Assembly: GCA_050011565.1 (NCBI GenBank)
Contig: JBEKIW010000003.1
Coordinates: forward strand, 192,001-256,000
Source: Dehalococcoidia bacterium
GTDB taxonomy: Bacteria > Chloroflexota > Dehalococcoidia > GIF9 > UBA5629
Reading direction: 5' to 3'
Length of the DNA stretch: 64,000 bases
A model generated the notes under the pieces. It did no database searches and was not told the origin of the DNA. It saw nothing but the letters and a program-made list of their open reading frames with translations. Position 1 is the first letter of the stretch. Each line of letters starts with the position of its first letter. The translations under genes and the position numbers were made by a program. Shown in pieces: positions 25,099 through 54,517 of the stretch.

Positions 25099-25210
25099 TT
25101 TTTCACCCTCACCACGACCCTCTCCCATCAAGGGATAGGGAGATTACAAACAGTTCAGGCGTGGCTTCGGACTTGACAAGGCTCAGGCGAGGGGGTATAA
25201 GATTTATACC

Positions 25211-26560: not shown

Positions 26561-26574
26561 ACACCTCCTAATCC

Positions 26575-27087: not shown

Positions 27088-27145
27088 ATGTAGCCCTGAG
27101 GCTTCAGCCTCGGGTGCACCCGACCTTAAAAGGTCGGGGCTACAT
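27088..27145. repeat. REP-like double hairpin, inverted-orientation copy in the S-layer leader
   Basis: atgtagccc..gaggcttcagcctc..cgaccttaaaaggtcg..gggctacat. Confidence 0.8.
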
Positions 27146-27192
27146 TGGGAAAGAGAATAAGTTTTCGGAGTTTAGAAATATTAGGAGGTATA

Positions 27193-31056: not shown

Positions 31057-31078
31057 TCCTTACCTGCTTGAGATAAGC

Positions 31079-31114
31079 AAAAAGGGAGGTGGCATAAGCC
31101 ACCTCCCTTTCTTA
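31079..31114 (+). terminator. Rho-independent terminator of the S-layer-like gene
   Basis: aaagggaggtggc-ataa-gccacctcccttt followed by a T-rich tract. Confidence 0.85.
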
Positions 31115-31544
31115 TTTCCGCCGATATCGCATAGATTGGTGCATCTGCTCTCGTGTCACCGCAACATGTAGCCTCGACCTTCCCATCGGCGATATCCCCG
31201 TAACCTTCATAATCGATGTAATCCTCATAGGGCAAATTTGCGATCGAGGGCCTTACGTCGGCAATATTACGATGACGGTATATGATTTCAATAGGCGGCG
31301 CATCTGAAAACCGCTGAGGATGACGTAACGGTACTAAAGTTCGTTGAATTCCAGGACTAAAGTATCGTCTACGGATAAACAAATCCACACCATATTCCGT
31401 TATCCTATTTAGGGATTGACAAGATTACGGTCATACTAAAAGGAGGTGATATTTTTTTGCAGGTAAGAGTTTCGGCTTAAAGGCAGGGTTTCCACCGCAT
31501 CAATGTAGGCTAAACGGAAATAATATTAATAAATGGAGGTGAAT

Positions 31545-32765
31545 ATGAATACGCAAAAATGGTTTCTTGTCTTAATCGCCATATCGTTGTTAGCGCTGAT
31601 TGGCTCCGCCGCCGGCTGCGGTGCAGCGGCACCGGCAACATCGGCTGCCATGCCAACCATCAGCTCCTTTGGCGCCAGCCCGCCGAGCATCAATCAGGGG
31701 CAGCAGACCACGCTTAGCTGGAACGTATCCGGTGCCACCACGCTTACCATACAGCCCGATATCGGTAGTGTAGGCCCATCAGGTTCGCTTACGCTGACCC
31801 CCAATGCTACTATCAGCTACACACTGACAGCCAGCAACGAGGCCGGTAGCACCACCGGTTCTGCTACCGTAAACGTGACGCCGGTGGTCGCCGGTAAGCC
31901 TGATCTGGTCATTACAGATTTCTATCTCATGTCCAGTCAGGTCTATTACGTAATAAAGAATCAGGGTAATGCCGAGGCGCAACCAACACAGACAGATTTT
32001 TATATTGCCTATATTAACCAATCTGCAGAAACAGTCACCTGGCTTAAACAGACCAGTAACTTCGTAGACAAGCTGGCGCCGGGAGAGGAAAGGATACAGC
32101 GCTTTTCCAATTTCGATTGGACCTTTGGGTCTGTGAACCCTATTGTAGGAACGTCCATCACCTATAACGTCCGGGCCTGCGCTAATGCCAATAATTCTAT
32201 CGCAGAGAGCAATACGGGCAACAACTGCCTGGTCAAAGTCTGGGGGACGGGCTTCACCTACGATTTCGTAAAACAGGCGCATCTGGCTAAGTGGACGAAC
32301 GGCATCGATACCCTCCGCTGGCCAATGTCCTCCAAGGACGTTAACGGCGCCGCCTATTTAATTAGCTATAACCCCATGCTGGTAATATGCCCCGAGCAAG
32401 TAAACAACGGCTGGATAATGGGTAAATTCGGCGATTTTTATAGTGATCCAGAGACCCGCGCGGCCATGGTACGCGATATTGAAATACCGCTGCTGGCAGA
32501 GTTTACCTCCAGGGTTGGCTTTGCTCCGGGCACAACATCCCCCGATGGAGTCACCGTCGCCCTTGGTTACTACGATGATATGGGCAGCCTCGTATTTTTT
32601 GACAAGATGCCCGTCATGAGCGATGGGCAAATGCACGACTACAACGTCGACCTTGGTAATATGGCGGCGAAGCACACCCAGTTTGTGCTCTGGGTTCAAG
32701 CGAACGGCTCTCCGCAGGGCACCTGCTTGAGGTGGGAGGCACCCAAGATAACTCAAAAAGAATAG
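31545..32765 (+). CDS. CARDB/Ig-like domain lipoprotein
   Basis: Lipobox SAAGC, Ig-like domain, KPDLVITD...IKNQG...ESNTGNN CARDB motif. Confidence 0.8.
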   Translation: MNTQKWFLVLIAISLLALIGSAAGCGAAAPATSAAMPTISSFGASPPSINQGQQTTLSWNVSGATTLTIQPDIGSVGPSGSLTLTPNATISYTLTASNEAGSTTGSATVNVTPVVAGKPDLVITDFYLMSSQVYYVIKNQGNAEAQPTQTDFYIAYINQSAETVTWLKQTSNFVDKLAPGEERIQRFSNFDWTFGSVNPIVGTSITYNVRACANANNSIAESNTGNNCLVKVWGTGFTYDFVKQAHLAKWTNGIDTLRWPMSSKDVNGAAYLISYNPMLVICPEQVNNGWIMGKFGDFYSDPETRAAMVRDIEIPLLAEFTSRVGFAPGTTSPDGVTVALGYYDDMGSLVFFDKMPVMSDGQMHDYNVDLGNMAAKHTQFVLWVQANGSPQGTCLRWEAPKITQKE

Positions 32766-32888
32766 CAATAGATGTAATAGCACGCTTTTAGCGTTGCCGC
32801 GGCGGGGCTTAAAGCCCCGCCCTCCCTTTTCCCCTGCTGACTACAGGCATAGAGTGGAGCCTCCGCCGCAATTCCGCCCGGAGCGGCA

Positions 32889-32956
32889 AAATGTAGCCTC
32901 GACCTTTTAAGGTCAAGGTCGCGAGGCTAAAGCCTCGTGGCTACATGCTTAACAAA
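32889..32956. repeat. GTAG-type REP-like double hairpin, copy 4
   Basis: Matches 23371-23438. Confidence 0.85.
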
Positions 32957-33152
32957 TCGCAAATCCCGAGCACCAAACCCCAAACAGATTCAAAGCCCCA
33001 AATACGAATGACTCAATCATACCTATCACCGTAATCTCTTTTTCATCTTTGTAATCTTTCTATTTGTCCTTTGATTGTTAACTTTTGGTTTTTCCTTTCG
33101 TTTGACACATATTCTAACCACACCTATAATGCCCGTAAAAACCGGAGGCCGG

Positions 33153-34358
33153 ATGATGAAACATAAATGGTATTTAACGCTTATCGCCATATCTCTCGCC
33201 GCCCTAATCGGCTCAATTACCGGCTGCATAACTATCGTCACACAGGAGCCGGCACCTGCCACGGAGCAGCCGGTATCTCCACCGACAATCAACTCCTTTA
33301 CCGCCAGCCCGACTAGCGTCAGTCAGGGGCAGCGTACTACGCTGAGCTGGGACGTTTCCGGTGCCGCCACGATTACCATACAGCCCGAAATCGGCACCGC
33401 AGGGCCTAGCGGCTCGCTACAGCTAACACCAAATGCTTCCGTCACCTATATGCTGACAGCTACCAATCAGGCCGGCAGCACCACCAGATCCGTCTCTGTA
33501 GCAGTCACGCCTGGCTTTGCCGGCAAGCCAGACCTGGTGATTACGGATATCTGGCTAAGTGGAAGCCAGGTCAATTATAAGATAGCCAACATCGGCAGCG
33601 GCGATGCCAAATCGAGCCAGTCCTATCTATACACAAATGACGTCAAGCAAGCCGATGACTGGGTGGAACCGCTGGCCGCGGGTGAGGAAAGAACCACGTC
33701 CTTTCCTAATTACGACTGGAAAATCGAGACGGGCGCCAACCCTGTCTCTGGAGATTTCTCCACACACTATGTTAAGGTCTGTGCCGATGCCGAAGATAGC
33801 ATTGAGGAAAGCGACAAGGGCAACAACTGCCTGACCAAAAACTGGGGGCAGACGTTTACCTACGACTTCGTGCAGAACGCACACCTGGCAGAATGGAGGA
33901 GCGGCGCCGCCGTAATCACCTGGCCTAAGTTTGCCGGCAATCAAGCGGGAGCCGCCTACTTAGAGGGCAATGCATTGATAATGTGCCCCGAGCAGGTTAG
34001 TAATGGCTGGATACAAGGCAGATTCGCCGATTTCTACTACGACCCCATCACCAAGACAACGCGCAGCAGCTTGCTTAAAGTGCCGGAGAATGCCAGGTTC
34101 ACTGCTCAAGTGGGCTTTAAAACGGGAGCCACATCCACCGACGGAGTAGTAATCGCCCTCGGTTACCTGGACGAAGCCGGCGGCATTGTGCTATTACCTA
34201 AGATTGAACTTTATCCAGGTGATAAATCACGGGCTTACACAATCGATTTAAGCAATCTGGCAGGTAAGCAAACCGAGTTCATACTTCGAGTAGAAGCCAA
34301 AGGTACCCCTGAGGGAGACTGCGTGCGTTGGGTGGAACCCAAGATAGTCCAGGAGTAG
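33153..34358 (+). CDS. CARDB/Ig-like domain lipoprotein, tandem paralog of 31545-32765
   Basis: Lipobox SITGC; colinear similarity (KPDLVITD, FTYDFV, CPEQVxNGWI); GGAGG RBS. Confidence 0.8.
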   Translation: MMKHKWYLTLIAISLAALIGSITGCITIVTQEPAPATEQPVSPPTINSFTASPTSVSQGQRTTLSWDVSGAATITIQPEIGTAGPSGSLQLTPNASVTYMLTATNQAGSTTRSVSVAVTPGFAGKPDLVITDIWLSGSQVNYKIANIGSGDAKSSQSYLYTNDVKQADDWVEPLAAGEERTTSFPNYDWKIETGANPVSGDFSTHYVKVCADAEDSIEESDKGNNCLTKNWGQTFTYDFVQNAHLAEWRSGAAVITWPKFAGNQAGAAYLEGNALIMCPEQVSNGWIQGRFADFYYDPITKTTRSSLLKVPENARFTAQVGFKTGATSTDGVVIALGYLDEAGGIVLLPKIELYPGDKSRAYTIDLSNLAGKQTEFILRVEAKGTPEGDCVRWVEPKIVQE

Positions 34359-34695: not shown

Positions 34696-34851
34696 GTGAA
34701 AATACCGAAACAAAGCGACGGGAATCCCGCCAGACCGGTTCGTGTTAAAAATGGTTTAGGACTTCGGCCAAATAAATCAGGCAAAGGGGCGATGGTTGTA
34801 CCTCCGAAACGCATACCTCTTCCGAAGTTCAGCCCACCTAAAAATAGTTAA
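34696..34851 (+). CDS. Small basic Pro/Lys-rich peptide inside the IS end
   Basis: GAGGT RBS, GTG start, TATAAT upstream; convergent with the transposase. Confidence 0.35.
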   Translation: MKIPKQSDGNPARPVRVKNGLGLRPNKSGKGAMVVPPKRIPLPKFSPPKNS

Positions 34852-35684
34852 TTTACCAGTCTGACTAGTTCATCAATTCCCCAAACATGGTCAGTTAATC
34901 CTGCTGCCATTGCCGGAGTTCTCGGATAAGGATAAGCCAGTGTCTTATGCGGTCTAGCGAAGTTATAATGCATAAAATATAAAGCTAGAGCGTATACATG
35001 GTTTTCCAGTTTCTTAGAAAAAGCATTTGTTAGCCTAGTAAATCTTCTCATGCTCATTCTCATTGTTAGATTCTGACGCTCTGCAAAACTAGTAGATATT
35101 TGGGCGGGGTCGGGATTCCCCTGAATAACTTGTTTTTCTGCCGCAATGCAAGCAGCGGGGCCATAGCGTTTTTCAGTTTCTGACTCAAGCCCATAGAGTT
35201 TAATTAGCATTGCATAATCCACCTCAGAGCCAAAGGCATCCTCAATAGCCCACAAGTAGACCTTGTGACCGTCTGTGGTAATTTGAACACGATTAGCTAG
35301 TCTGTTTTTTAGGTCATTCATAAACGGATAAGCATAACTAGCATCCCTCAATCCCACCAGCCAGCAGGGTACTAGCTTTGTGTCTGCGTCTATGGCTGTC
35401 CACGTCCATACATCGCCATACCCGAATTCGCCATTATGTTCTTCCGGCACATTTTTGTCTTTTGAATAAACAAAGCTCCATATTTCGTCACATTGTATGT
35501 GCGTACATGGTAAGTCATGCATTACCTTGTCCTGATATTCCAGGCAGGCTGCACCGACCTCTCTGAGCAATTTGACGACTGTATTGATGGCAGTGTCAGT
35601 TATACGGGCGGTACTGCGTATCGAGTTGCCTTCACAGAGTACCTTGATAACTTGAGCTTTGCGTTCTATACTGAGCTTATTCAT
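34848..35684 (-). CDS. IS1-family DDE transposase
   Basis: EGNSIRSTAR HTH, QCDEIWSFV, ITTDGH, STSFAERQNLTMR, RRFTRLTNAFSKK. Confidence 0.93.
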   Translation of the reverse strand: MNKLSIERKAQVIKVLCEGNSIRSTARITDTAINTVVKLLREVGAACLEYQDKVMHDLPCTHIQCDEIWSFVYSKDKNVPEEHNGEFGYGDVWTWTAIDADTKLVPCWLVGLRDASYAYPFMNDLKNRLANRVQITTDGHKVYLWAIEDAFGSEVDYAMLIKLYGLESETEKRYGPAACIAAEKQVIQGNPDPAQISTSFAERQNLTMRMSMRRFTRLTNAFSKKLENHVYALALYFMHYNFARPHKTLAYPYPRTPAMAAGLTDHVWGIDELVRLVN

Positions 35685-42310: not shown

Positions 42311-42406
42311 GAGGACAGCCATCTGCCATAACCCTGGGCCCAGGCTCTCTATTGACTTTAATCCATTTCGTGTTATGATAGCAGACAAAATGGCTTGGAG
42401 GAAGCA

Positions 42407-44194
42407 ATGAAAGCAGGAGCTACAGGTACAGCACTCGCCATTCTATTGCTCGCTGTTTGCCTGACACCGATACCTGTCCACGCGGATTCTCTAATGTTGA
42501 ACACTGCCCAAGGTATTGTGGGCACAAATGTGACCATTCCTTCGGTGACTGGCTACGGCCTTGGTAATTACGAGCTTTACTGGGGCGAAAATGACCTGCT
42601 GATAGGCCAGGGCGAAATTAAGCAGGGCGTAGTTTCAATAGCTTTTATTGTTCCGGAAGCCTCCAGAGGCAAACACAAAGTCACCTTGAAAATCGCCGGC
42701 AACTTTTTCACTAGCGACTTTATCGTCATTCCCGCTATAGGCCTCAGCAGTAACGAGGGTACCGTAGGCTCAAATCTGACAATTGCCGGGAAAGGCTTTA
42801 ATGCCAATGAATCGAACATACAGGTAACCTTCGACGCTAACCCGGCACAAACTGGGATTGTGGCCGGTAGTAAAGGAAGCTGGCAAATCACTATAAAAGT
42901 TCCGGCGAGCAGTCGAGGCCAGCATATTATCGATGCTGCAGGCACCACACCTGCTTCCGAGGTTGAAGATAAAGAATTCACAGTAATCCCGGAAATCGAA
43001 ACCAACCCGTCGTCCGGCTGGGTAAACACGGTAGTAGGCATATACGGCAGCGGGTTTGCTACCGGCGAAACCAACATAAAAGTAACGTACGATGGCGGAA
43101 CAGTAAAAACGGATATAGCGGCCGATGCCAAAGGTTCATGGCAGTCCAGTTTCTCAATCCCGTCATCCTCTAGAGGCAGCCACGATATAAGAGCTTACGG
43201 AGCGGTTACCAACGAAAGTGATTTACAATCAGCTAGCTTCTCCGTATCTCCGGGAATAAAACTTGAACCGGTCTCCGGTTACCTGGGCGGTGCTATTTAT
43301 GTAGGTGATGGTCTATATATCGGCGGCGTCGGCTTCGAAGCTAACGAAACCAATATCAAAGTCACTTATGACGGAGCGCTGGCTATCAGTAATATCACAG
43401 CCGATACCAAGGGCTCATGGTCAGATAAATTAGATGTGCCTCCGTCTAGCAAGGGAGAGCATATCATCGATGCTTCTGGAGAAATTACTAAAGCTAGCGA
43501 TATCGTCGACGCTATTGTAATTGTTTCACCCAAGGTAGAACTGAATCCCGCTTCGGGCGCTATAGGCAGTGATATAACGGTTCACGGCACTGGTTTTGCA
43601 GCCAATCAGGTTATAACTATCAGCTACGATGGCGCCAAGGTTGCCTCCGGCGCAGCCACAGACGCCAAAGGCGTTTTCACGACCAGCTTCAAAATTCCAC
43701 AAAGTAGAGCTGGCGACCATACAGTAACCGTTACCGACCCAACGGCCGCCGTATTCTCAATGAACTTGAGTGTAGAGTCAGTGCCGCCGCCAACACCCAA
43801 TCTCATATCTCCGGAGGCCGGCAGCGAGTTCGGGTCCTTCGGCAAAACTATCGTTACCTTCCGCTGGTCAGCCGTCGAAGACCCCAGCGGAGTCTACTAT
43901 GTATTGGAAATAAGCCCCAGTTCCGATTTTGCTGGTACAGTAATTCGAAAAGAGGGCTTAACCGTGACCGACTACACGCTGGCTAAGAACGAGGCTCTCA
44001 CCAAAGGGAACTATTATTGGAGAGTCAGAGCTGTAGACGGTGCCGATAATCAGGGCGATTGGACAAACGGACAACTCTTTAAGATTGGCGGCATCGACTG
44101 GTGGCTAATTCTACTCATCGCCGTGGCTGTCATAGTTGTAATCGTTATTATCTGGCGTTTCGCATCTGTCAACCGAAAGGACAAATGGAAATAA
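42407..44194 (+). CDS. Secreted multi-IPT/TIG plus Fn3-like surface protein with C-terminal TM anchor
   Basis: Signal peptide (VHA), repeated GxGFxAxExNIxVTxD units, DPSGV.Y, YYWRVRAVDGA; paralog of 25211-26560. Confidence 0.85.
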   Translation: MKAGATGTALAILLLAVCLTPIPVHADSLMLNTAQGIVGTNVTIPSVTGYGLGNYELYWGENDLLIGQGEIKQGVVSIAFIVPEASRGKHKVTLKIAGNFFTSDFIVIPAIGLSSNEGTVGSNLTIAGKGFNANESNIQVTFDANPAQTGIVAGSKGSWQITIKVPASSRGQHIIDAAGTTPASEVEDKEFTVIPEIETNPSSGWVNTVVGIYGSGFATGETNIKVTYDGGTVKTDIAADAKGSWQSSFSIPSSSRGSHDIRAYGAVTNESDLQSASFSVSPGIKLEPVSGYLGGAIYVGDGLYIGGVGFEANETNIKVTYDGALAISNITADTKGSWSDKLDVPPSSKGEHIIDASGEITKASDIVDAIVIVSPKVELNPASGAIGSDITVHGTGFAANQVITISYDGAKVASGAATDAKGVFTTSFKIPQSRAGDHTVTVTDPTAAVFSMNLSVESVPPPTPNLISPEAGSEFGSFGKTIVTFRWSAVEDPSGVYYVLEISPSSDFAGTVIRKEGLTVTDYTLAKNEALTKGNYYWRVRAVDGADNQGDWTNGQLFKIGGIDWWLILLIAVAVIVVIVIIWRFASVNRKDKWK

Positions 44195-44277: not shown

Positions 44278-45459
44278 ATGAGACTATTGGTTATCGGATT
44301 AGGGCAATGTGGCTCCCGAGTCGCCGATCAGTTTGTCCGTTTAAATAAGCGGGCAGCAGCGCAGTGGGGCATCAATATAGTCACGGGAACCTTTGCCGTA
44401 AATACGGACCAAACCGACCTGACTGGTTTAACTCATATAGGCACCGATTTTATGCATCGCATCCTCATCGGCGGTCGTAAGACCTGGGGACATGGTGTGG
44501 GCAAGATAAACGAGATGGGCGCCGAGTTAGCCAGAGAGGACGGTGACAAGGTAGTTGATGCCATCAGAACTGCACCCAATTTTTACCAGACCCATGCTTT
44601 CATGCTTATCGCTGGGGCGGCCGGTGGTACCGGCTCGGGTGCCATATCGGTAATCGCCCAAATGCTTAAAGAACGATACGTTGGCAAGCCGGTCTACGCC
44701 CTGGTGGTTCTTCCCTTCGAACACGAGGAAATGGCGGAGCTAAGAAGCGTTTACAATACCGCGACTTGTCTAAAGTCAATACAGTCGGTAGCCGATGGCG
44801 TCTTTCTGGCAGATAATCAACGCTATGTTAGAAAGGACGCCAGCCTGGCAATGAACCTGGATAGAATAAACTCAACCATTGCCGAACCTTTTTACGATAT
44901 GATGTGTGCCGGCGAGATAACTAGATTTAAATACGTCGGTGCTAAAGTGCTGGATGCCGGTGATATAATGCAGTCCATAGACGGCTGGACGGCAATAGGG
45001 GTTGGCCGAACCAGCATACCGCGTGCCTTCCGCTTTCCCTGGGAACTGAACAAGGTCAGCTTCAAGGAGAAGAGCGATGAGAGTCTAAGGGCTATGCAGG
45101 CTATGGACGCCGCCTTCAGTGAGCTTTCCGTCGGCTGCAGCCCCGAGGATGCCGGCAGAGCCTTATATCTGCTCTCGGCACCGGCGAAGGACATGTCTAT
45201 GGACATCGCCAAAGGTTTAGGCGACTATCTCAGAGAACTCGCAGAAAATGCAGTAATCAGAGCCGGCGACTTCCCCAGAGGTGGGGTAACCGTCGACGTC
45301 ACCGTAATACTTTCTCAGCTAGCCTTCGTCCAGAAGATAAGAGACTACTACGACAGAGCTACAGCCTTTGCTCAGACCCAGAAGGAGCGGATAAAGGAGA
45401 CAACGGGCAGGCTCCGTGACATGGAAGAAGCCGCTAAGGGATTGCCCAGCTTAATCTAG
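44278..45459 (+). CDS. Tubulin/FtsZ superfamily protein, CetZ-like (intact GTP motifs)
   Basis: GLGQCG, AVNTD, GHGVG, GAAGGTGSG, VLPF, DN, VLDAGD; TTGACA promoter and AGGAGG RBS. Confidence 0.9.
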   Translation: MRLLVIGLGQCGSRVADQFVRLNKRAAAQWGINIVTGTFAVNTDQTDLTGLTHIGTDFMHRILIGGRKTWGHGVGKINEMGAELAREDGDKVVDAIRTAPNFYQTHAFMLIAGAAGGTGSGAISVIAQMLKERYVGKPVYALVVLPFEHEEMAELRSVYNTATCLKSIQSVADGVFLADNQRYVRKDASLAMNLDRINSTIAEPFYDMMCAGEITRFKYVGAKVLDAGDIMQSIDGWTAIGVGRTSIPRAFRFPWELNKVSFKEKSDESLRAMQAMDAAFSELSVGCSPEDAGRALYLLSAPAKDMSMDIAKGLGDYLRELAENAVIRAGDFPRGGVTVDVTVILSQLAFVQKIRDYYDRATAFAQTQKERIKETTGRLRDMEEAAKGLPSLI

Positions 45460-45488
45460 CCATATCAAATATTATTCTGACAAAACAT

Positions 45489-45520
45489 AAGGGGAGGGAT
45501 AAACCCTCCCCTTTATTATT
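45489..45520 (+). terminator. Rho-independent terminator
   Basis: aaggggaggg-ataaa-ccctcccctt followed by a T-rich tract. Confidence 0.8.
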
Positions 45521-45560
45521 TAAGAAGGTCCGTCCCTACTTTTTTATATTCTGGCCCCTC

Positions 45561-45626
45561 CTTACGCTCATTCCGAGCTTCCTTTACGCATATTCCGGTC
45601 TTTCTTTACGCTCATTCTGAGCTTGT
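45561..45626. repeat. Three degenerate 22-bp tandem repeats
   Basis: cttacgctcattccgagcttcc / tttacgcatattccggtctttc / tttacgctcattctgagcttgt. Confidence 0.7.
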
Positions 45627-45657
45627 CGAAGAATCCGCAGGGAAACGTCTACTTTCC

Positions 45658-47064
45658 TCAGTCAGATAATAGCCCTCTAGCCTTTCGTGGCATCCACTTA
45701 TTGGCCGCTTGAACCACCATAGCCAGGCTCATCAGATAATCATCATGACCATCACTGCTATCGACAAAGAAGTTCAATGTCTGGCTGGGTCTGTATATGC
45801 TCTTAGCTTTCTGAAGCTCAAACATCAACTCCCTATAATCTTCGGAGTCGTCCTGTTGGTAAAGCTTGAGCCTGCCGGAGTTTACAGCCGCCAATAAATC
45901 GAAGCCCGCTTCAGACTTCGTCTTTTGAGTAAATTTAAAGGGGATAACTTTACCGCCCAATGATTTACGTAAGAAGCTGGTTACGGGCTCACCAATGCCC
46001 GTGGCGTCGGCGACAATTCGGCTGCATCTCCATAAGTTTTTCAGTATGTCCACCATCTGAGGGTATAGTTCAGCATGCTTCTTGCCCACCCAGCTATAGT
46101 TCTCAACTACATGTACTCTGGGCTCCCTGGCCGGTATGTCCATACCATCATATGTAACCTCAGCAATGGTTATGACGGTGGCGTCTCTGCCCGAGCGGGT
46201 CAGAATATCATCTTCGAGCTGCTCCGACTCGCCGGCGAAATCTATGCCGGCTACGTAGACCCTGCCTTCCTGCAGGCGGCTAAGTCTGAGATGTTCGCCC
46301 CTTAGTTGGGCGATTTGCTGGTTGGTCAGGAAACCACCTCCGCCTCGAATTGGCAGTAGAGCATATTGAGTCCGGAACAGAGGATGGTCTTCGCCGAGAC
46401 GCTGCCGTTCGGACTCAATAAAGGATTTGTAACTTGGATTATATTTGGCTACTTCCTGCCAGTCATAACGGAAATGGCGCTTAATACCATCCTTCTTCTC
46501 CAGCTCCAGGTTAGTCTGCTTTACCTCTTCCAGCAAGGTAGTATCGTCCCAGGTTGTGCCATAGTGAACAGTGGTGGCATTTGAAGCTGATACCATGGGC
46601 CGGAATTCTTTGGTATATTTATCCTTAGCTACGTCCTGGGATTCGTCTATCTCTAGCAGTATGTCGGCGGTATGCCCCACTACCGAAGCTGATTCGTCAG
46701 CGGAAAGAAATATCTGTCTGGCATTGCCCAGCCTGACCATATAGCCAGCCTCGGTAAACCAGATGCCGCCGAAACCGAAATCGTTTAGCCTGTCCTTGAG
46801 CCGGCTAATGGAGATAATTGTCTGCGGTTTGAACGTTGGGGAACACTTGATGGCATTGCCGCCGGCAGCCATGAACATTGTCAGCAGTAAAACTTCGAGA
46901 TGTACCGAAAGCTCATTCTTACCACCCTGGCGGGCGATTTCGACCGAAAAGGTCAAACCTAAATTACCCTGAATGCTCTCGATGATGGCTTTGGACGCTT
47001 CAGCTTGATAGGGCGCAATTTCATTTCGAAAAATAAAAGGAAAAGGGAACTCGAGGAAAAACAA
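45658..47064 (-). CDS. Phage terminase large subunit-like protein (5' end uncertain; possible frameshift)
   Basis: PYQ motif, Walker A ARQGGKN, Walker B LEIDESQ, YGTT, nuclease AGIDFAG, DATGIG, HDDYLMSLA. Confidence 0.85.
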   Translation of the reverse strand: MFFLEFPFPFIFRNEIAPYQAEASKAIIESIQGNLGLTFSVEIARQGGKNELSVHLEVLLLTMFMAAGGNAIKCSPTFKPQTIISISRLKDRLNDFGFGGIWFTEAGYMVRLGNARQIFLSADESASVVGHTADILLEIDESQDVAKDKYTKEFRPMVSASNATTVHYGTTWDDTTLLEEVKQTNLELEKKDGIKRHFRYDWQEVAKYNPSYKSFIESERQRLGEDHPLFRTQYALLPIRGGGGFLTNQQIAQLRGEHLRLSRLQEGRVYVAGIDFAGESEQLEDDILTRSGRDATVITIAEVTYDGMDIPAREPRVHVVENYSWVGKKHAELYPQMVDILKNLWRCSRIVADATGIGEPVTSFLRKSLGGKVIPFKFTQKTKSEAGFDLLAAVNSGRLKLYQQDDSEDYRELMFELQKAKSIYRPSQTLNFFVDSSDGHDDYLMSLAMVVQAANKWMPRKARGLLSD

Positions 47065-47089
47065 AACCGGCGGTCTCTTATTGAAACCT

Positions 47090-47419
47090 TTAGCTTCTTA
47101 TCAGCGTCTTAACACCCAGGGGAATAGCTATCTCAGTTAATACTTTGGTGATAGCCTCCTTAAGAGACTTCTTCTGTTCCTTGCTGATGTTATAGCGGGT
47201 TGTTACCAGCCGGGCAATAGTGGTAGCCAATCTCAGATGCAGGTCAAATTTCTCCGGCGCGGCGACAATAAGCTCCCTGAGCTTAACGCGAAGTATGGCA
47301 ATCTCCTCGTCAATACCCTCTATGCCCCTAGCTTCTTCAAGCTCCAGCCTCTCGGCTTCATTAAGTGCCTGTCCGTAAAATACCTGTCTTTTGCTTTTTG
47401 CGGCGTTCTTTCTTACCAT
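47090..47419 (-). CDS. Putative terminase small subunit-like helical protein
   Basis: RKNAAK..FYGQAL..GIDEEIAILRVKLRELI; immediately upstream of the large subunit. Confidence 0.6.
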   Translation of the reverse strand: MVRKNAAKSKRQVFYGQALNEAERLELEEARGIEGIDEEIAILRVKLRELIVAAPEKFDLHLRLATTIARLVTTRYNISKEQKKSLKEAITKVLTEIAIPLGVKTLIRS

Positions 47420-47510
47420 TTTCCATCGCCCTGATAATTCCATAGACCAAAGCATAAGCAGCCAGGTCATATCTCTGACTATCTAATGCAACCTTCAACA
47501 ACTTCGCCAT
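47361..47510 (-). CDS. Small hypothetical protein (49 aa), first gene of the terminase operon
   Basis: MAKLLKVALDSQRYDLAAYALVYGIIRAMENGKKERRKKQKTGILRTGT; ATG follows the -10 box by 9 nt, the same spacing as at 25046. Confidence 0.55.
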   Translation of the reverse strand: MAKLLKVALDSQRYDLAAYALVYGIIRAMENGKKERRKKQKTGILRTGT

Positions 47511-47519
47511 GTCATCATC

Positions 47520-47562
47520 ATAGTAGCACTATTGTTCTATTTTAACAAGCTTAACTTGTCAC
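47520..47562 (-). promoter_or_regulatory. Sigma70-type promoter with overlapping LexA-like box (TAGAACAATAGTGCTA)
   Basis: Minus strand TTGTTA-17-TACTAT with extended TG; 47524-47562 is 31/39 identical to 25060-25098. Confidence 0.7.
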
Positions 47563-47646
47563 TATTTCTTTCGGAATCGGGGCCGGCTCCGATACGATTG
47601 GCAGCCTTTGGGTTAAATAAGCCGGTGTGCTATACTATGCGCCATT

Positions 47647-48906
47647 ATGAAGCACAGGGTTGCAGTTGTCGTATTGATTAGTACCCTGCTGCTCATGCTG
47701 GCGTGTGCTAGTTCCTCACAAAAGTATATTGAGCAGGCTGATACCTATTTCGCGCAGCAACAATGGAATGAAGCTATTAGCGAATACAGCAAGGCAATTG
47801 ACGACAATCCAAACCTGGCCTTGGCCTATAGCAAACGCAGCCAGGCTTATGCCGCCAAAGAAGATTGGAATGCGGCTGTCAGCGACCTGAATAAGGCTAT
47901 CGAGCTGGACCCGAAGTTAATTGAGGCCTACAGTCATCGTGCTGCAGTTTATCATGCTCAAGGGCAATGGGACATGGCCATTAGCGACCTGAATAAGGCT
48001 ATCGAGCTGGACCCGAACCTGGCCGTGGCATATAGCAGTAGAGGCTGGACCTACGCTTCCAAAGGGCAATTAGATTTAGCGCTTGCTGATTTGAACAAAG
48101 CCATTGAGTTAGACCCCAATCTGGCTGAGTCATATCATAATCGAGGTCTGGTCTACAACGCTCAGAGTCGTTGGGACATGGGCATCGCCGATTTGAGCAA
48201 GGCAATAGAGCTTGACCCGACCAATTTCACGGCATACGAGGACCGTGGCTCCGCCTATTCCAACACCGGGAAACTCGACCTGGCCATCGCTGACCTGAAT
48301 AAGGCTATAGAGCTGAAACCTGACTATGCATTGGCTTACTATAATCGCGGCCTGGTCTACAAGGAACAGGAAAAATGGGAACCGGCAATCGCCGATTTCA
48401 ACAAAGCATTGGAACTCGAACCGAGTCTCGTCGGTATCAATCAAGTACTGGCTGAAGTATACACCAACCGAGGTTTTATCTATCGGACACAAGAGCAAAA
48501 TGACCTGGCTATAGCCGACTTTAATAAGGCTATAGAACTGGACCCGAACCTGGCTGTAGCCTACTTTAATTTGGGCTGGGTGTACAATACGCAGGGAGAG
48601 TGGGAGCTGGCTATCACCAATTTTAGCAAAGCGGTGGAGTTGGAGCCCCATTACCCGCAGGCATACAGTAACAGGGCTTACAGCTATCTCGTCACTGGAG
48701 AATTGGATAAAGCTATCGCTGACTACAGCAAGGCAATTGAGCTAGACCCAAGTTATGCCCTGGCTTATTACAATAGGGCACTTGCCTACTACAACACCGG
48801 CCAGTCTGACCTGGCAGTTGCCGATTTCAATAAAACCATTCAGCTGTCGACCGACCCAGACCTGATTTCCTTAGCTAAGGACCGCATATCCGAGATCCAA
48901 AAATAA
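47647..48906 (+). CDS. TPR-repeat lipoprotein (about 11 TPRs)
   Basis: Lipobox MLAC; repeated AIADxNKAIELDP..AY..RG. Confidence 0.93.
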   Translation: MKHRVAVVVLISTLLLMLACASSSQKYIEQADTYFAQQQWNEAISEYSKAIDDNPNLALAYSKRSQAYAAKEDWNAAVSDLNKAIELDPKLIEAYSHRAAVYHAQGQWDMAISDLNKAIELDPNLAVAYSSRGWTYASKGQLDLALADLNKAIELDPNLAESYHNRGLVYNAQSRWDMGIADLSKAIELDPTNFTAYEDRGSAYSNTGKLDLAIADLNKAIELKPDYALAYYNRGLVYKEQEKWEPAIADFNKALELEPSLVGINQVLAEVYTNRGFIYRTQEQNDLAIADFNKAIELDPNLAVAYFNLGWVYNTQGEWELAITNFSKAVELEPHYPQAYSNRAYSYLVTGELDKAIADYSKAIELDPSYALAYYNRALAYYNTGQSDLAVADFNKTIQLSTDPDLISLAKDRISEIQK

Positions 48907-48936
48907 AGTAGTGTGGATTGAGAAATTTGGATTTAT

Positions 48937-49620
48937 TTAGGATTTGGTGCTTAGAATTTGGAATTTGTCCTTAAAAAAGTCAGCTACCTTATTGCCCAGA
49001 ACTGATTCATATCCCCACCACAGGTGGTCGGCTCCGTCAATTAGTTCAAATTGTTTTGGCTCAGCCGCTTCTCTACCCATCAGTCGCGCCTGCTCCAGCG
49101 GCACAATCATATCATTAGTTCCACAGATTAGAAGCTTTGGCTTGGGGCAGCTCTTCAATTGAGAAATCTGTGACTTTCCATGAGGCATTGAAATCAACGC
49201 CACTGCTCCGACTCTATCATCCGCGCAGGCAACGGGCAATGCCACAGCAGCGCCAAATGAATAACCCGAAAGCCCCACCCGGTTACCATCCGCTTCCGGC
49301 TGAGAAATAATCCAGCTTAGGGCGGCCGCCGCATCTTCTTGTTCGGCTATGCCACCCCCAAAGCTGCCCTGGCTGCCACCCACGCCGCGAAAGTTAAACA
49401 TAAAGGCAATAACAGACTTTTTTATCAGAGCCAAACTTATCGATAGAATAACGTTGTTATCCATCGAGCCGCCATAGACAGGATGAGGATGGCACAGCAC
49501 TACGGCCGGGAAAACTCCATCTCTGTCCGGGCAATAACACAGACCCTCAAGCGTAAGCTTACCGCAAGGAAAAGATACGTGCCTCTGCCTCAGCCTTTCG
49601 TCTCCCGTTTGCCTTGCCAC
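48937..49620 (-). CDS. Alpha/beta hydrolase
   Basis: HPHPVYGGSMDN, FNFRGVG, GYSFG nucleophile, GADH. Confidence 0.92.
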   Translation of the reverse strand: MARQTGDERLRQRHVSFPCGKLTLEGLCYCPDRDGVFPAVVLCHPHPVYGGSMDNNVILSISLALIKKSVIAFMFNFRGVGGSQGSFGGGIAEQEDAAAALSWIISQPEADGNRVGLSGYSFGAAVALPVACADDRVGAVALISMPHGKSQISQLKSCPKPKLLICGTNDMIVPLEQARLMGREAAEPKQFELIDGADHLWWGYESVLGNKVADFFKDKFQILSTKS

Positions 49621-50960
49621 CAGGCCTCAATTCTGGCTGCTATCTCTTTTTCGTAGCCCTGGTCACTTGGCGAATAGTATCGCTTCCCCTGAAGCATGTC
49701 CGGCAGATTCTGCTGTTCTACAAAGTGGCCCGGGTAATCGTGGGCATATTTGTAACCTTTTCCATAGCCGCTATCTTGCATCAACTTGGTAACCGGATTG
49801 CGCAGATGAAGCGGCACCGGCTCATTTCGACTCCGTTCAACGTCATGCTGCACCTTAGAGTAGGCTTCGTACAGAGAATTACTTTTCGGCGCTGTAGCCA
49901 AATAGGTTACGGCTTCAGCCAGAGCCAGATTGCCTTCAGGCATGCCGATAAAGTGGACGGCCTGTTGCGCTGCCACTGCTACCACCAATGCCTGAGGGTC
50001 AGCCATACCCACATCCTCGGAGGCGAAGCGTAGCAGTCGCCGGACAATATATAGAGGGTCTTCGCCCGCCTCCAGCATTCGCCCCAGCCAATATAAGGCT
50101 GCATCCGCGTCGGAACCACGCAGCGACTTATGAAGCGCCGAGATCAGGTCGTAATGCTGGTCGCCAGCCTTGTCATAAAGCAAAGCTCGATGCTGCAGTG
50201 CTTCCTCAATGGTTTTGAGGTTAAGCCGCCTATGTCCGTCAGCATCGGGCGCAGTGGCCTGTGTGGCCATCTCCAAAGCATTCAGAGCCACTCTGGCATC
50301 TCCGTTCGACATGACGACCAGGTGCGCCAAAGCATCTTCGTCAAGCCCTACATTGAACTTGCCTAACCCCCTGTCCTCATCTTTAATAGCTCGCTCAACG
50401 ATAAGACGGACCTCAGCATCACTCAAGGAATTCAGACTAAACACCCGGCATCTGGAAAGCAGCGCTGAGATAACTTCAAAGGAAGGATTTTCTGTAGTGG
50501 CGCCGATGAGAATTACTACACCGTTTTCCACATACGGCAATATGACGTCTTGCTGAGTCTTATTAAATCGGTGAATTTCATCAATAAACAGGATAGTACG
50601 CTGTCCGGTAAGCCTGCGTCTACGCCTGGCCTCATTCACAATGCGCCGTAAATCCGCGACTCCGGCATTGACGGCACTTAGAGGGCTGAAATGCGATTTG
50701 GTAACGTTAGCGATAACGTAGCCTAAAGTTGTCTTGCCGCTGCCTGGTGGCCCCCAGAGAATCATCGAAGGTAACTGGTCTGCTTCGATGGATTTTCTCA
50801 GCACCCGCCCTTTGCCCACAATATGTTCTTGCCCCACAAACTCATCGAAATTATGTGGGCGCATTCTGGCGGCTAGAGGTAAATCACCGGGCAATTCACC
50901 GTATGCCCAAACATCCTTTTTCTCCTTCTCCTCCTGCCCAGTCAAATCGAAAAGAGTCAT
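49590..50960 (-). CDS. rarA: Replication-associated recombination protein A (MgsA/RarA)
   Basis: PLAARMRP, WGPPGSGKTT, FIDEIHRFNK, ATTENPSF, SALHKSLRGSD. Confidence 0.97.
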   Translation of the reverse strand: MTLFDLTGQEEKEKKDVWAYGELPGDLPLAARMRPHNFDEFVGQEHIVGKGRVLRKSIEADQLPSMILWGPPGSGKTTLGYVIANVTKSHFSPLSAVNAGVADLRRIVNEARRRRRLTGQRTILFIDEIHRFNKTQQDVILPYVENGVVILIGATTENPSFEVISALLSRCRVFSLNSLSDAEVRLIVERAIKDEDRGLGKFNVGLDEDALAHLVVMSNGDARVALNALEMATQATAPDADGHRRLNLKTIEEALQHRALLYDKAGDQHYDLISALHKSLRGSDADAALYWLGRMLEAGEDPLYIVRRLLRFASEDVGMADPQALVVAVAAQQAVHFIGMPEGNLALAEAVTYLATAPKSNSLYEAYSKVQHDVERSRNEPVPLHLRNPVTKLMQDSGYGKGYKYAHDYPGHFVEQQNLPDMLQGKRYYSPSDQGYEKEIAARIEAWWQGKRETKG

Positions 50961-50961
50961 G

Positions 50962-52071
50962 CTAATCCGTCTTCTTCTCCGCCTCCACCGCTGGGGCTAG
51001 CCTGGCTGCCCTGTCATAATAGCTTTTAATTCTGTCAACATAAATCAACTCCGAAACAAGCACTGTCACTTTGGTAAAATTCTTCGAGCCATAGAAATTA
51101 CCATCTCTTATTTCAGCATTGGGTGCCAGCTCTCGTAGGCGATTACCCAGAGCCTTAATCATGTCCACATTGGCTTTTCCGGCCGGTGCCGAAAGTAGAA
51201 ACAAACCCTTACCGGCATCTTCCAGCTTGCAGTCAACCGACAACCGCATTAAAGCCAAATCCATGGCTTCCATGACTCTGAACGTATCAGAGCTCTTCCC
51301 CTCGAACCCGGCAGTTCTTCTGAACGAAAATATAGAGGATTGGAACTGGGCCTTGCCGACACCTATTGCCGTCCAACCGAATAGACTTTGCATGATATCA
51401 CCGGCGTCGAGCACTTTCCCGGCAACATACTTCGAGCCGGCTATCTCGCCAGCGCAGAGCAGGTCATAGAAGGGCAAAACTAATTCCCTATTCAAGCCGC
51501 CCATCTTTTGCGGTTGGGCTATGTTCCCCAGCAGCCCCAAACCCCCGTTATCTGCTAGAAATACAGCATCAGCCACCTTGTCAATGGTCTTTAGACACAT
51601 AGCCGTATTGTGAATACGCTGCGCATCGTCCAGCTCAGAATCAAAGGGTAAAACTAGAAGCGCGTAAACCGGCTTATCGATATGGCGCTCTTTGAGCATC
51701 TGAATCATCACCGGAAGACCGCCGGAACCAAGGCTACCGGCAGCGCCGGCAATGAACAGAAAGGCATCAGTATTTATGAAAGCACCCAGCCTCATGGCTA
51801 ACATAACCCGCTCGCTTTCATGACGCATCAGCTTGGCTCCTGCTTCCGTCGACTTATCTCCCATCCCAAGAGAGCCGCGAATAGGTACTGCCTTCAGCCA
51901 GTCCCATCCCGATTTAGTCAGTTCAGCCAGAACAGCCGGCTCATTATTAACGGCATAGGCGCAGGTAACTATGTTAGCGTGCCATTCTGCTCTCGCCATT
52001 TTATTTAACTCAGCGAATTCGCGAGCCAGTCTACAGCCGCAGTCTCCAACGCCGATAACCATCAATTTCAT
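50962..52071 (-). CDS. Tubulin/FtsZ superfamily protein, CetZ-like paralog with degenerate GTP-binding loops
   Basis: GVGDCG, GAAGSLGSG, no GHGVG loop, retains VLDAGDIMQS and GWTAIG. Confidence 0.85.
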   Translation of the reverse strand: MKLMVIGVGDCGCRLAREFAELNKMARAEWHANIVTCAYAVNNEPAVLAELTKSGWDWLKAVPIRGSLGMGDKSTEAGAKLMRHESERVMLAMRLGAFINTDAFLFIAGAAGSLGSGGLPVMIQMLKERHIDKPVYALLVLPFDSELDDAQRIHNTAMCLKTIDKVADAVFLADNGGLGLLGNIAQPQKMGGLNRELVLPFYDLLCAGEIAGSKYVAGKVLDAGDIMQSLFGWTAIGVGKAQFQSSIFSFRRTAGFEGKSSDTFRVMEAMDLALMRLSVDCKLEDAGKGLFLLSAPAGKANVDMIKALGNRLRELAPNAEIRDGNFYGSKNFTKVTVLVSELIYVDRIKSYYDRAARLAPAVEAEKKTD

Positions 52072-52118: not shown

Positions 52119-52634
52119 TCAAGCAAACCTTTCCACCCGGAAACGATACAATCTTATCGGCTCCCCGGCTGATATGCCGGCTTTAGCCCGGCAAATTTCC
52201 ATTTGTTCTTCAACTTTATCCACGCCTGCCAGGTCAGGCAACAACAGCCCGCGCCTGTAACCGCATTCTACAATCACACCATATTTCCGGGGGTCAAGCT
52301 GGTCAGTGCTTTGCACCGGCTCCGGTTCCGTAAGAATATCTACACTATATTCAAGGTCAACCAGCTCAGAGGTCTCCACCGGCATAAACCTTGGGTCCTG
52401 TGTAGCTGAGCTTATAGCATTGGCTACGATTTCCTCAGCTACGTTCGTCCTTGTTGGCATGAAAGTACCGATACAGCCCCTTAATTCACCGCGCTTCTTA
52501 ATAGATACAAAAACTCCTGCCCTCTGCTTCATCTCAGCGGTAAGCTTCCGCGGCTTGAATATCTTGCCCTGGCGGATATACCTTTCTACTGCTTTTCGAG
52601 CTAATTCAACTATCGCAGGACGTGGTTTAGTCAT
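52119..52634 (-). CDS. amrA: AmmeMemoRadiSam system protein A (AMMECR1 domain)
   Basis: [27 protein letters not shown]. Confidence 0.93.
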
Positions 52635-52653: not shown

Positions 52654-53457
52654 TTACTTTATTAATATTCCGGCATAACCCACCACACTGCTGTAATCAC
52701 CCGATGCGTCGCCGCTGGTCTGATACTTAACCAATTCTGCTTTTTTAGCGCCCATTTCCTTGGCCGCAGAGATAAGGCTGACCACCGGTGCATAACCGCA
52801 CATTGATATATCAAAATCAGCAACTCGTCTCAATAACTCGTCCTCATCTAAATTCAATATAGCCTCAATCGCCTTACTGTCCTTCTTCCTGGCTGACTCC
52901 TGAGGCTCATAATGCGTCATGTCGCTGCTGGCCAGGATTGTGACTTGCTTCTTCGACTCTTTTATGGCGGCGGCTAATTCCTTACCGATTCTCTTATATA
53001 CATTCCCGCGAGCGTGAGCCAGAACTATGGGCACTATCCTAACATCTGGTTTGAAATACTGCAAAAAGGGCACCTGGACCTCAAGAGAGTGCTCAAATTG
53101 ATGCGCCATATGGTCTTCTTCCAAATAGCTCGAAGATGTTAAAATTCGCTGTCCCAGCTCCGAGTCAATCTCCGTCTCACCTAAAGGTGTTATCCACGTG
53201 CCTTTGGTCATGATACTAAAACTTTTTCCTCGCCCGGTGTGATTTGGGCCAAGCATGACAAAGGTATCATTGAATTTAATCTCAGATATGACTGCTCCGG
53301 CTACCATACCCGAGTAGACATATCCGGCATGAGGCGAAATCAGCCCGATTACCTCAACCTTCCCTGCCTTGTCGTCTACCATGCTCTCAATCATCGTCCT
53401 GAGCCCGTCCGATGAGCCCGGGTAGAACTGTCCGGCAGCAATCGGCTCTCTAATCAT
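52654..53457 (-). CDS. amrB: AmmeMemoRadiSam system protein B (MEMO1 family)
   Basis: [38 protein letters not shown]. Confidence 0.94.
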
Positions 53458-54517
53458 GCACTCCTCCTCGTGATAGTAAAAACTGGCGAACCCAACCGGT
53501 CGTCTTGATATTAAGCTCAGACCCGCAAAACTTACACTTGGAACCGTCTACGCCAACTATGTCAACGTCATACCCCACCCGCTTAATCACCACGTTGCCG
53601 CAGCAGTAACAAACCGTGTTTTCCGCACTATGGCCGGGCACATTACCCAGATATACGAAACGCAGCCCAACTTTTTTGCCGATATTGTAAGCCTTTTCCA
53701 GGCTTGCTATCGATGTCGGCGGCAGATGCATCAGGTTGTATTGTGGATAGAATCGGGTCACATGCCACGGTGTCAGCTCACCCAGCTCATCGCGTATCCA
53801 GCCGGCGATACCGTTTAGCTGCTCGTCATCGTCATTCATCGTCGGAATAATATTAGTCACCACCTCGACATGCATTCCCCACTTTTTTTGAGCTCTCTTG
53901 GTAACGTCCAGTATGCCTCGCCACCGTGGAATTTTGGCTAAGTCACGATATAATTTGTCGGAAAAGCCCTTGATATCAACGCGCCAGGCATCAAGATAGG
54001 GGCCGATGGCATCCAGAGCTTCAGGTGTCAGGTAACCGTTGGTAACGTATCCCGTATAAAGGCCCTCTTTCTTGGCCAGTTTGGCTGAGTCCAGAGTATA
54101 TTCGAACCAGATGCTCGGCTCGTTATACGTCCAGGTAATACCGCCGCAGCCGCGCTGCTTAGCCAGCTTCACAGCCTCCTCCGGCGGCAAGTAACGTGAC
54201 TCATCTGACATCTCCGCCGGTGTCTCAATACAGGAAATCTGCCAGTTTTGACAATGTTTGCAGTGAAAATTACATCCCCAGGTGCCCAGGGATAAAGCTG
54301 AACTTCCCGGGAAAAAATGAAACAGGGGCTTTTTCTCAATAGGGTCAACAGCTACCGAGGAGGCTTGAGCGTAGTTGAGAACATGGAGAATACCGTCATC
54401 GTTTCGGCGCACCCGACAGACACCAAATTTGCCGGGGTTAATCACACAGCGCCATTGACAGATATTGCATCGTACCCTGGATTCAGAAAGCTTTTCATAA
54501 ATGAACACTTCAATCAT
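53450..54517 (-). CDS. amrS: AmmeMemoRadiSam system radical SAM enzyme
   Basis: DPIEKKPLFHF, CNFHCKHCQN, TYNEP. Confidence 0.95.
   Translation of the reverse strand: MIEVFIYEKLSESRVRCNICQWRCVINPGKFGVCRVRRNDDGILHVLNYAQASSVAVDPIEKKPLFHFFPGSSALSLGTWGCNFHCKHCQNWQISCIETPAEMSDESRYLPPEEAVKLAKQRGCGGITWTYNEPSIWFEYTLDSAKLAKKEGLYTGYVTNGYLTPEALDAIGPYLDAWRVDIKGFSDKLYRDLAKIPRWRGILDVTKRAQKKWGMHVEVVTNIIPTMNDDDEQLNGIAGWIRDELGELTPWHVTRFYPQYNLMHLPPTSIASLEKAYNIGKKVGLRFVYLGNVPGHSAENTVCYCCGNVVIKRVGYDVDIVGVDGSKCKFCGSELNIKTTGWVRQFLLSRGGVHD

Follow-up and report, generated by a model that had tools for sequence, protein, structure and literature searches.

A conserved pair of CetZ-like tubulin-family genes in Dehalococcoidia, one with intact nucleotide loops and one a probable pseudo-GTPase

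The window described here, a stretch of 64,000 nucleotides (contig C3:192001-256000) from the genome of a Dehalococcoidia bacterium, carries two genes for tubulin-family proteins, termed paralogs A and B, whose sequences support a CetZ-like and not an FtsZ identity. Paralog A looks like an intact GTPase of the tubulin superfamily, with all of the nucleotide loops and the T7 loop kept, while paralog B combines a preserved T7 loop with a rewritten nucleotide site and is probably a pseudo-GTPase. Bacterial CetZ-like genes have been known until now from one passing mention in print; judged from the sequence comparisons below, the conserved pair with its pocket-degraded member is real. Both open reading frames (ORFs) are present where an earlier reading of this DNA (the original prediction) had placed them, and the motifs that it had listed, GQCG, GHGVG, GGTGSG and LDAGD in A and GDCG and GSLGSG in B, were all located (Table 1).

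The altered nucleotide site of paralog B

A and B are 48% identical over 367 residues (E 6e-101), and the 11-mer KVLDAGDIMQS around the T7 loop, which had been described as almost identical in the two proteins, turns out to be fully identical. The difference between them lies in the nucleotide pocket. The T4 signature of the tubulin/FtsZ superfamily (G-G-G-T-G-[ST]-G) is present in A as GGTGSG and absent from B, which has GSLGSG in its place. Threonine substitutions in the GGGTGTG motif of FtsZ are known to impair GTP binding.

The same division runs through a survey of 120 A-type and 114 B-type database sequences, each at least 330 amino acids long. In the A type, T1 reads GQCG in 116 of 120 sequences and T3 reads GHGVGK in as many, and every T4 form listed is GGTGSG. 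The B type has a T1 of its own (GxGDCGC in 97 of 114), and the eight commonest forms of its T4 loop, which account for 77 of the 114 sequences, all fit G[SA][LVI]GSG and lack GGT. T3 exists in 91 distinct forms among the 114 sequences and varies more than any other part of a protein that is otherwise constrained. The claim that B has lost its GxG loop is thus not wholly correct for this genome, where a degraded LGMGD remains; across the orthologues T3 is variable and degenerate.

A site-wise comparison singled out 21 sites with conservation of 95% or more in the A type but below 50% in the B type. Eleven of these fall at A positions 47-83 (T2-T3) and five at 185-197 (T6-H7, the base contact), and constraint has been lost in the B type at A positions 69-83, that is, in T3. 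Other positions have been exchanged and then held: the change from Gln to Asp in T1 (Q10D) is one of 10 conserved A/B switches. A further 79 positions, many of them in the C-terminal domain, are conserved with the same residue in the two groups. The acidic T7 residue belongs to the conserved part of the protein, with G228 and D229 (A numbering) at least 90% conserved and the same in both groups. The second Asp of LDAGD aligns with E218 of CetZ1 and with the last Asp of NLDFAD in the host's own FtsZ, so the earlier remark that neither paralog has the FtsZ NxDFAD motif is literally correct but overlooks that LDAGD is the same T7 acidic pair. Erosion of the B type goes further in sister families, where T1 reads GxG[RK], T4 reads GNFGS and T7 reads LG[VI]GD.

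B is nevertheless under purifying selection. Across 11 genomes, the median pairwise dN/dS (the ratio of nonsynonymous to synonymous substitution rates) is 0.113 for B, from the 20 of 55 pairs with dS below 2, and 0.031 for A, from 36 of 55. B is the faster evolving of the two (median dN 0.118 versus 0.033), just as the B type has the lower mean pairwise identity (0.61 versus 0.77 in the A type), and intact B ORFs are found in all 11 of the genomes compared. Given purifying selection and intact ORFs, B counts as a functional protein whose nucleotide site has been remodelled and not as a pseudogene. The data support the view that the pocket alteration is a conserved, selected state, and the label of probable pseudo-GTPase attached to B in the original prediction gains support from the sequence comparisons.

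The predicted structure of B most resembles that of a CetZ. An AlphaFold2 model built on a 33-row alignment has a mean predicted local distance difference test score (pLDDT) of 81.8 and a predicted template modelling score (pTM) of 0.84, and when this model was used in Foldseek it gave template modelling (TM) scores of 0.82 with CetZ2 (4b45), 0.79 with CetZ1 (4b46), 0.75 with TubZ (4ei7) and about 0.65 with FtsZ. The best solved relative of B by sequence is likewise 4b46 (phmmer, 9.3e-23).

Paralog A and its C-terminal motif

Paralog A finds the same structures at lower E values: 4b46 at 4.5e-41 over residues 1-374, then 4b45 at 2e-21 and 3zid at 1.8e-14, with the best FtsZ at 1.5e-8 (phmmer). 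It also has a hydrophobic motif at its extreme C-terminus, as does CetZ1 (LESLF). At least 105 of the 120 A-type sequences end in [KR]xLP[ST]L[IM], preceded by a conserved ..RLRDME[DE]AA; the tails of intact A-like paralogs in other Dehalococcoidia families are mostly ..D[IL]P[ST]LL, and many archaeal CetZs terminate in ..E[LI][ED]PL[FI]. B has no such motif, and the tail of the B type is short, charged and variable. The original prediction had denied a C-terminal tail to both proteins, which is true of B and mistaken for A.

Family membership and phylogeny

Both paralogs clear the Pfam cut-offs for Tubulin (PF00091; A 107.5 bits, B 64.9, cut-off 33) and for CetZ_C (PF21011; A 53.1 bits, B 42.2, cut-off 21.6), so the matches are far beyond chance. 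The CetZ_C profile is itself discriminating, since among 14 control genomes it matched only in Haloferax volcanii. The FtsZ equivalog TIGR00065, with a cut-off of 295.2 bits, gives 60.4 bits for A and 16.5 for B, and the TubZ-type profile PF13809 gives 16.5 bits for A (cut-off 27) and no match for B.

Relationships within the superfamily were examined in a tree of 101 rows, obtained by a quick search in IQ-TREE under LG+C20 with posterior mean site frequencies (PMSF) and supported by the Shimodaira-Hasegawa-like approximate likelihood ratio test (SH-aLRT). Its rows comprised A, B, Dehalococcoidia tubulin-family ORFs, archaeal loci, the host FtsZ and 14 proteins from database searches, together with FtsZ1, FtsZ2 and extra CetZs from three archaeal genomes. 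Of 80 named archaeal loci, 24 entered the tree and the other 56, mostly additional ones from Halobacteria and Archaeoglobi, were omitted for size; L008, L010-L012, L049 and L128 were also omitted. TubZ, PhuZ, tubulins and BtubA/B lie outside this tree, as do the Thermococcales CetZs, at which the boundary of the CetZ family was set by Brown and Duggin (2023).

The seven FtsZ rows (FtsZ1, FtsZ2 and the host FtsZ) separated from all CetZ-like rows with support of 100, so that neither paralog groups with canonical FtsZ; together with the TIGR00065 scores, far under the cut-off, this bears out the earlier assignment of both as CetZ-like and not FtsZ. Archaeal CetZ formed a group of 25 rows (support 92). 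A, B and all of the A-like Dehalococcoidia paralogs formed a separate clade of 59 rows (support 95) beside archaeal CetZ. The description of the pair as archaeal-style is apt insofar as the proteins are CetZ-like, but their clade is not nested within the archaeal group. Within it, an order-level clade (30 rows, support 99) takes in a B clade of 16 rows (support 100) as well as an A clade of 9 rows (support 99), which makes B a lineage-specific duplicate of an A-like gene.

Several other tubulin-family genes deserve mention. A second CetZ-like lineage of Dehalococcoidia comprises six genes (L006 and L101-L104, in genomes G033, G150, G071, G051 and G049) that form a clade with support of 100 and join the archaeal CetZ side weakly (85, drawn open). 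These genes have the archaeal-type GQAGG and GLGGGTGSG, match CetZ_C much more strongly (E 1e-30 to 1e-38) and lack the hydrophobic tail; in G049, two of them lie in tandem and adjoin an A-like gene and a TIG-repeat protein. In genome G026, from sister family f3, two paralogs (L133 and L134) have both lost the T1 Gln, and one has lost T3 and the other the first T7 Asp. They branch elsewhere in the Dehalococcoidia clade than B, so a second paralog may have eroded independently here. Finally, behind the CetZ gene at the Hydrothermarchaeota loci L017, L020, L021 and L022 stand two more tubulin-family ORFs in tandem, both highly divergent, of about 338 and 252-391 amino acids, with altered T1 and T4.

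Host genome and distribution

The host genome (2.0 Mb in 8 contigs, rated 99.2% complete) is that of a Dehalococcoidia bacterium with a normal FtsA-FtsZ pair and without detectable peptidoglycan machinery or MreB. That the host is a bacterium had been proposed before and is borne out by Rho, which is encoded within the window (Pfam scan), and by the close homologues of A and B with a named source, which come from a Chloroflexi or Dehalococcoidia bacterium. Besides A and B, the genome has one other tubulin-superfamily gene, a canonical ftsZ on contig C4 whose product carries GGGTGTG, NLDFAD and the C-terminal peptide ..LDVPSFLRR. The ftsA gene lies directly upstream of ftsZ, and A and B are both outside this locus. 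SEDS (FtsW/RodA), penicillin-binding protein (PBP) transpeptidase, MurG, MreB and SepF found no match in the genome. The ftsA-ftsZ locus (contig C4, about 30.6-32.4 kb; L001, L149) has thus been retained despite the lack of detectable genes for peptidoglycan synthesis, and the C-terminal peptide of the host FtsZ is similar to the tail of A.

CetZ_C is found in all 41 genomes of the order sample, in 37 of the 201 genomes of the class sample and in 13 of the 151 genomes of the phylum sample. These 13 are all from Dehalococcoidia, and there were no matches among the 135 phylum-sample genomes from other classes. In family f1, 18 of 25 genomes have at least two CetZ_C matches, and the seven with a single match are all at most 88% complete. 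The same 201 class genomes include 88 with SEDS and 87 with MreB, none of which is among the 37 with CetZ_C. Fisher's test puts this mutual exclusion at p 4e-11, a value that ignores kinship and so overstates the case, as related genomes are not independent.

Gene neighbourhood

The two paralogs occupy a stretch whose gene order is common to eight loci from three families of the order: TIG protein > A > | < terminase-like < small gene | ... | < hydrolase < MgsA < B < AMMECR1 < Memo (< radical SAM). The coordinates in the window are collected in Table 1.

Table 1. Features of the A/B region, in positions of the window
Feature	Coordinates	Strand	Matches and remarks
CetZ-like paralog A, 393 amino acids	44278..45459	+	Pfam Tubulin 1.3e-30, CetZ_C 3.5e-14
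A, T1 loop GQCG	44302..44313	+	residues 9-12
A, T3 loop GHGVG	44488..44502	+	residues 71-75
A, T4 signature GGTGSG	44623..44640	+	residues 116-121
A, T7 loop LDAGD	44950..44964	+	residues 225-229
A, extreme C-terminal motif GLPSLI	45439..45456	+	
CetZ-like paralog B, 369 amino acids	50962..52071	-	Pfam Tubulin 1.5e-17, CetZ_C 7.7e-11
B, T1 loop GDCG	52036..52047	-	residues 9-12; Q to D
B, T3 remnant LGMGD	51856..51870	-	
B, altered T4 GSLGSG	51721..51738	-	residues 112-117; in place of GGTGSG
B, T7 loop LDAGD	51397..51411	-	residues 221-225; kept
TIG/Ig-repeat surface protein	42395..44194	+	Pfam TIG 8.6e-19, Big_13; NCBIfam GxPGS_dom
Terminase-large-subunit-like gene, 468 amino acids	45658..47064	-	convergent on A; Terminase_6C 22.4 bits, just below the 22.6 cut-off
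Small gene, 126 amino acids	47090..47470	-	upstream of the terminase-like gene; no Pfam or PHROG family
Alpha/beta hydrolase	48937..49620	-	Pfam; last gene of the co-directional run with B; in 5 of 8 loci
MgsA/RarA AAA+ ATPase	49590..50960	-	MgsA_C 9e-73
AMMECR1 (PF01871)	52119..52634	-	1.7e-48; directly upstream of B
Memo-like protein (PF01875)	52654..53457	-	2.2e-79
Radical SAM enzyme (PF04055)	53450..54517	-	2.3e-21; of the AMMECR1-Memo-radical SAM trio

The gene immediately upstream of A, in the same orientation, encodes a TIG-repeat protein, which has an N-terminal segment resembling a signal peptide, Ig-like repeats, a single membrane helix at the C-terminal end and a basic tail of 12 residues. 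A homologue of this gene flanks A in all eight of the order-level loci, and one also adjoins the A-like gene of G049, which belongs to another family. Further predicted surface proteins are clustered at 19436-34358, including a 310-residue TIG/Big protein, a 1303-residue Ig-like protein, two CARDB proteins and ORFs of 941, 372 and 240 amino acids without a Pfam family. The original prediction had taken such neighbours for an S-layer cluster, a description for which no support was found: they are TIG, Ig-like and CARDB surface proteins, and Pfam and NCBIfam scans matched none of the surface proteins of the window to a curated S-layer family or domain. A weak match to a DDE transposase occurs at 34848-35684.

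On the other side of A, the terminase-like gene matches PHROG terminase families at 5e-6 to 7e-5. This gene and its 126-residue neighbour are found next to A in eight of eight loci, at 68-84% identity, and there are no other phage genes near them. A prophage remnant was considered as an account of the terminase-like gene and rejected as the simple explanation, given that the pair is kept in all eight loci across three families; the two genes look like a domesticated terminase-like pair.

B belongs to a different, co-directional run. The gene for MgsA starts 1 nucleotide after the B stop codon and lies directly downstream of B in five of the eight loci (about 0.4 kb away in a sixth), and on the other side a gap of 47 nucleotides separates B from AMMECR1, which adjoins B in seven of the eight loci, the eighth ending before it. 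The AMMECR1, Memo and radical SAM genes are themselves adjacent and co-directional. However, much the same arrangement occurs without B. In G031, from a sister family with no B-type gene, MgsA directly follows AMMECR1, and in G054 and G169 radical SAM, Memo/AMMECR1 and MgsA genes are found in one region that has no CetZ-like gene among them. It thus seems that B was inserted into an older operon, and a functional reading of its adjacency to AMMECR1 and Memo is weakened to that extent. Memo and AMMECR1, separate genes in the window, are apparently fused in the last two genomes (L159 in G054 and L160 in G169; 443 and 439 amino acids).

Proposed mechanism and alternative readings

How might such a pair function? 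Sequence logic and the behaviour of CetZ1 mutants suggest a model to which we would give a probability of about one half, namely that A is a GTP-driven filament former on which B docks, either as a cap or as the partner in a heteropolymer. The relevant mutants are described in a preprint (10.1101/2024.04.08.588506), according to which CetZ1 polymers become less stable with the T4 mutation G108S and hyperstable with the T7 mutation E218A, and rods no longer form once the terminal LESLF is replaced. With its nucleotide loops and T7 catalytic loop intact, A would form filaments in a GTP-dependent manner, and its conserved hydrophobic tail could recruit a partner or tether the filament at the envelope. 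B arose as a duplicate of an A-like gene within the order, and selection retained it even as the nucleotide pocket was taken apart by the exchange of Gln for Asp in T1, the degradation of T3, the replacement of GGT by GS(L/V/I) in T4 and the loss of base-contact constraint at T6-H7.

What B keeps is the catalytic Asp of T7, the loop expected to insert into the GTP site of the neighbouring subunit. A protein with a dismantled pocket and a preserved T7 would most likely bind by its T7 face to that end of A which bears GTP, while offering no GTP-loaded face itself. The outcome would then be either that B ends or destabilises the filament, acting as a cap, or that the two proteins assemble together into a heteropolymer in which one interface is static and the other dynamic. 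Polymerisation, the loss of GTP binding by B, the contact between A and B, and a cellular role in shape or envelope organisation are all steps that we infer. A complex prediction for A (residues 1-365), B (residues 1-360) and GTP scored 0.00 (mark 0.32); it was run without controls and counts neither for nor against binding.

Several observations weigh against this model. B retains the glycines of T4 (G-x-x-G-S-G), the T6 Asn and the LPF of T5, so that residual or altered nucleotide binding may remain, and many B-type sequences outside this genus have lost the first T7 Asp (LG[VI]GD). B is apparently co-transcribed with AMMECR1, Memo and MgsA and not with A, which lies 5.5 kb away. The support values in the tree are SH-aLRT values from a quick search in which several long branches were flagged, and for every member of the A/B clade the biochemical properties are predicted ones. 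Moreover, 76 of the 113 class-sample genomes that lack SEDS also lack CetZ_C, so CetZ-like proteins are no general requirement of wall-less Dehalococcoidia.

The retained residues bring up the alternative that B still binds nucleotide, with altered kinetics or specificity, and polymerises normally, alone or with A, in which case it would simply be one more specialised paralog. The invariant T4 residues of B (G112, G115, S116 and G117) and its whole C-terminal domain fit this idea, the Asp in its T1 could coordinate Mg, and other genomes of the class often have two or three intact paralogs. We nonetheless think it unlikely, at something like one chance among several: four separate elements of the pocket (T1, T3, T4 and T6-H7) have changed together and drift further in sister families, T3 is exceptionally variable, and the T6-H7 segment of the B model (residues 177-189) has a pLDDT below 50.

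A second alternative takes its cue from the neighbourhood: B would act without A and without GTP, either as a scaffold for the AMMECR1-Memo-radical SAM cassette and MgsA or as one of their clients. The tight spacing on both sides of B and the constancy of AMMECR1 in front of it speak for such a link, which is nevertheless rather doubtful. The operon also exists in genomes that have no B among these genes, and the apparent insertion of B lowers the weight of a partnership with Memo and AMMECR1; furthermore, B derives from an A-like gene and keeps a subunit-contact T7 loop that in this genome is identical to that of A.

Alternatively, the pair might be accessory to FtsZ, serving division and not shape, for example through competition of the A tail for FtsA. 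The tail of A (..KGLPSLI) does resemble the C-terminal peptide of the host FtsZ, FtsA is present beside ftsZ while SepF was not found in the host genome, and a paper on Dehalococcoides mccartyi places a tubulin-like protein among the division proteins (PMC8163811). We consider this improbable, as the resemblance of the tails is short, neither A nor B is in the ftsA-ftsZ locus, and archaeal CetZ tails are similar (..ELEPLF), yet CetZ1 acts in shape and not in division according to PMC9856176. That B is a decaying duplicate without function, as its faster evolution and degraded catalytic motifs might imply, is very hard to credit given a dN/dS of 0.11, intact ORFs across three families, the 79 positions shared with A, the 10 conserved switches and a confidently modelled fold (pTM 0.84).

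The model of a GTP-driven A filament with B docked on it can be extended, though in a form that we regard as speculative and probably wrong in at least some of its parts. After the loss of peptidoglycan and MreB, Dehalococcoidia may have rebuilt their shape system on a CetZ-like cytoskeleton, in which an obligate two-subunit polymer of a GTP-active and a dead-pocket, T7-keeping protein arose independently of alpha/beta-tubulin and was coupled to the envelope through the A tail and the upstream TIG-repeat membrane protein. If so, the partly degraded paralogs of G026, which are of different origin, would make a dead-pocket partner a recurrent solution.

Comparison with known systems

CetZ is called archaea-specific in current reviews (PMC9856176, PMC11621097). 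CetZ-like sequences from Chloroflexota-Dehalococcoidia, in the same protein group as A and B, were noted by Santana-Molina et al. 2023 (PMC9871819), a paper whose accessible parts describe no intact/degenerate pair, tail, synteny or link to the loss of peptidoglycan and MreB. Likewise, no description of the degenerate paralog B was found in the accessible parts of the literature on CetZ in Chloroflexi/Dehalococcoidia or on Dehalococcoides tubulin. In D. mccartyi, an 'FtsZ/Tubulin GTPase' distinct from FtsZ, which may or may not be CetZ-like, has been detected as protein and is scarcer in co-cultures, where cells go from discs to barrels (PMC8163811). A conserved bacterial CetZ-like branch confined to genomes without SEDS or MreB would be a testable candidate for the means by which wall-less Dehalococcoidia keep their shape, a group that includes Dehalococcoides-like genomes of bioremediation interest.

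The closest characterised relatives of A and B are the archaeal CetZ proteins, represented by Haloferax volcanii CetZ1 and CetZ2 (4B46, with GDP, and 4B45, with GTP; PMC9856176) and by a Methanosaeta CetZ (3ZID). They give the best sequence and fold matches to A and B, have the same combination of Tubulin and CetZ_C domains, carry an acidic T7 residue at the position of CetZ1 E218 and occur in hosts that likewise lack peptidoglycan machinery. With A in particular they share the T1 Gln (GQ.G), GHGVG in T3 and a hydrophobic C-terminal motif such as ..ELEPLF. That said, the host of A and B is bacterial and their clade is a separate one beside the archaeal group, T1 in their family reads GQCG and not GQAGG, and T7 reads DAGD and not DSSE. 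B has no counterpart among the characterised CetZs, and the functions of A and B are predicted ones.

Canonical FtsZ, as represented by the copy in the same host, shares the superfamily fold with A and B, the logic of T4 and T7, and a C-terminal peptide of similar flavour to the tail of A. It is unlike them in its GGGTGTG and NLDFAD motifs, in having FtsA as a neighbour, and in its fully supported separation (100) in the tree.

A different kind of parallel is offered by alpha/beta-tubulin and BtubA/BtubB, in which paired paralogous subunits have unequal nucleotide sites and make unequal catalytic contributions. By analogy, A and B would be two tubulin-fold paralogs with unequal sites, for which one static and one dynamic interface are possible. 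The allocation of roles would be another one, however: alpha-tubulin still binds GTP and beta-tubulin lacks the catalytic T7 residue, whereas in the putative A-B heterodimer it is the subunit with the damaged pocket, B, that keeps T7. The pair of an active and a degenerate paralog could thus serve as a compact natural system in which to study the capping of tubulin-like polymers or the formation of heteropolymers, a question normally approached only through eukaryotic tubulin.

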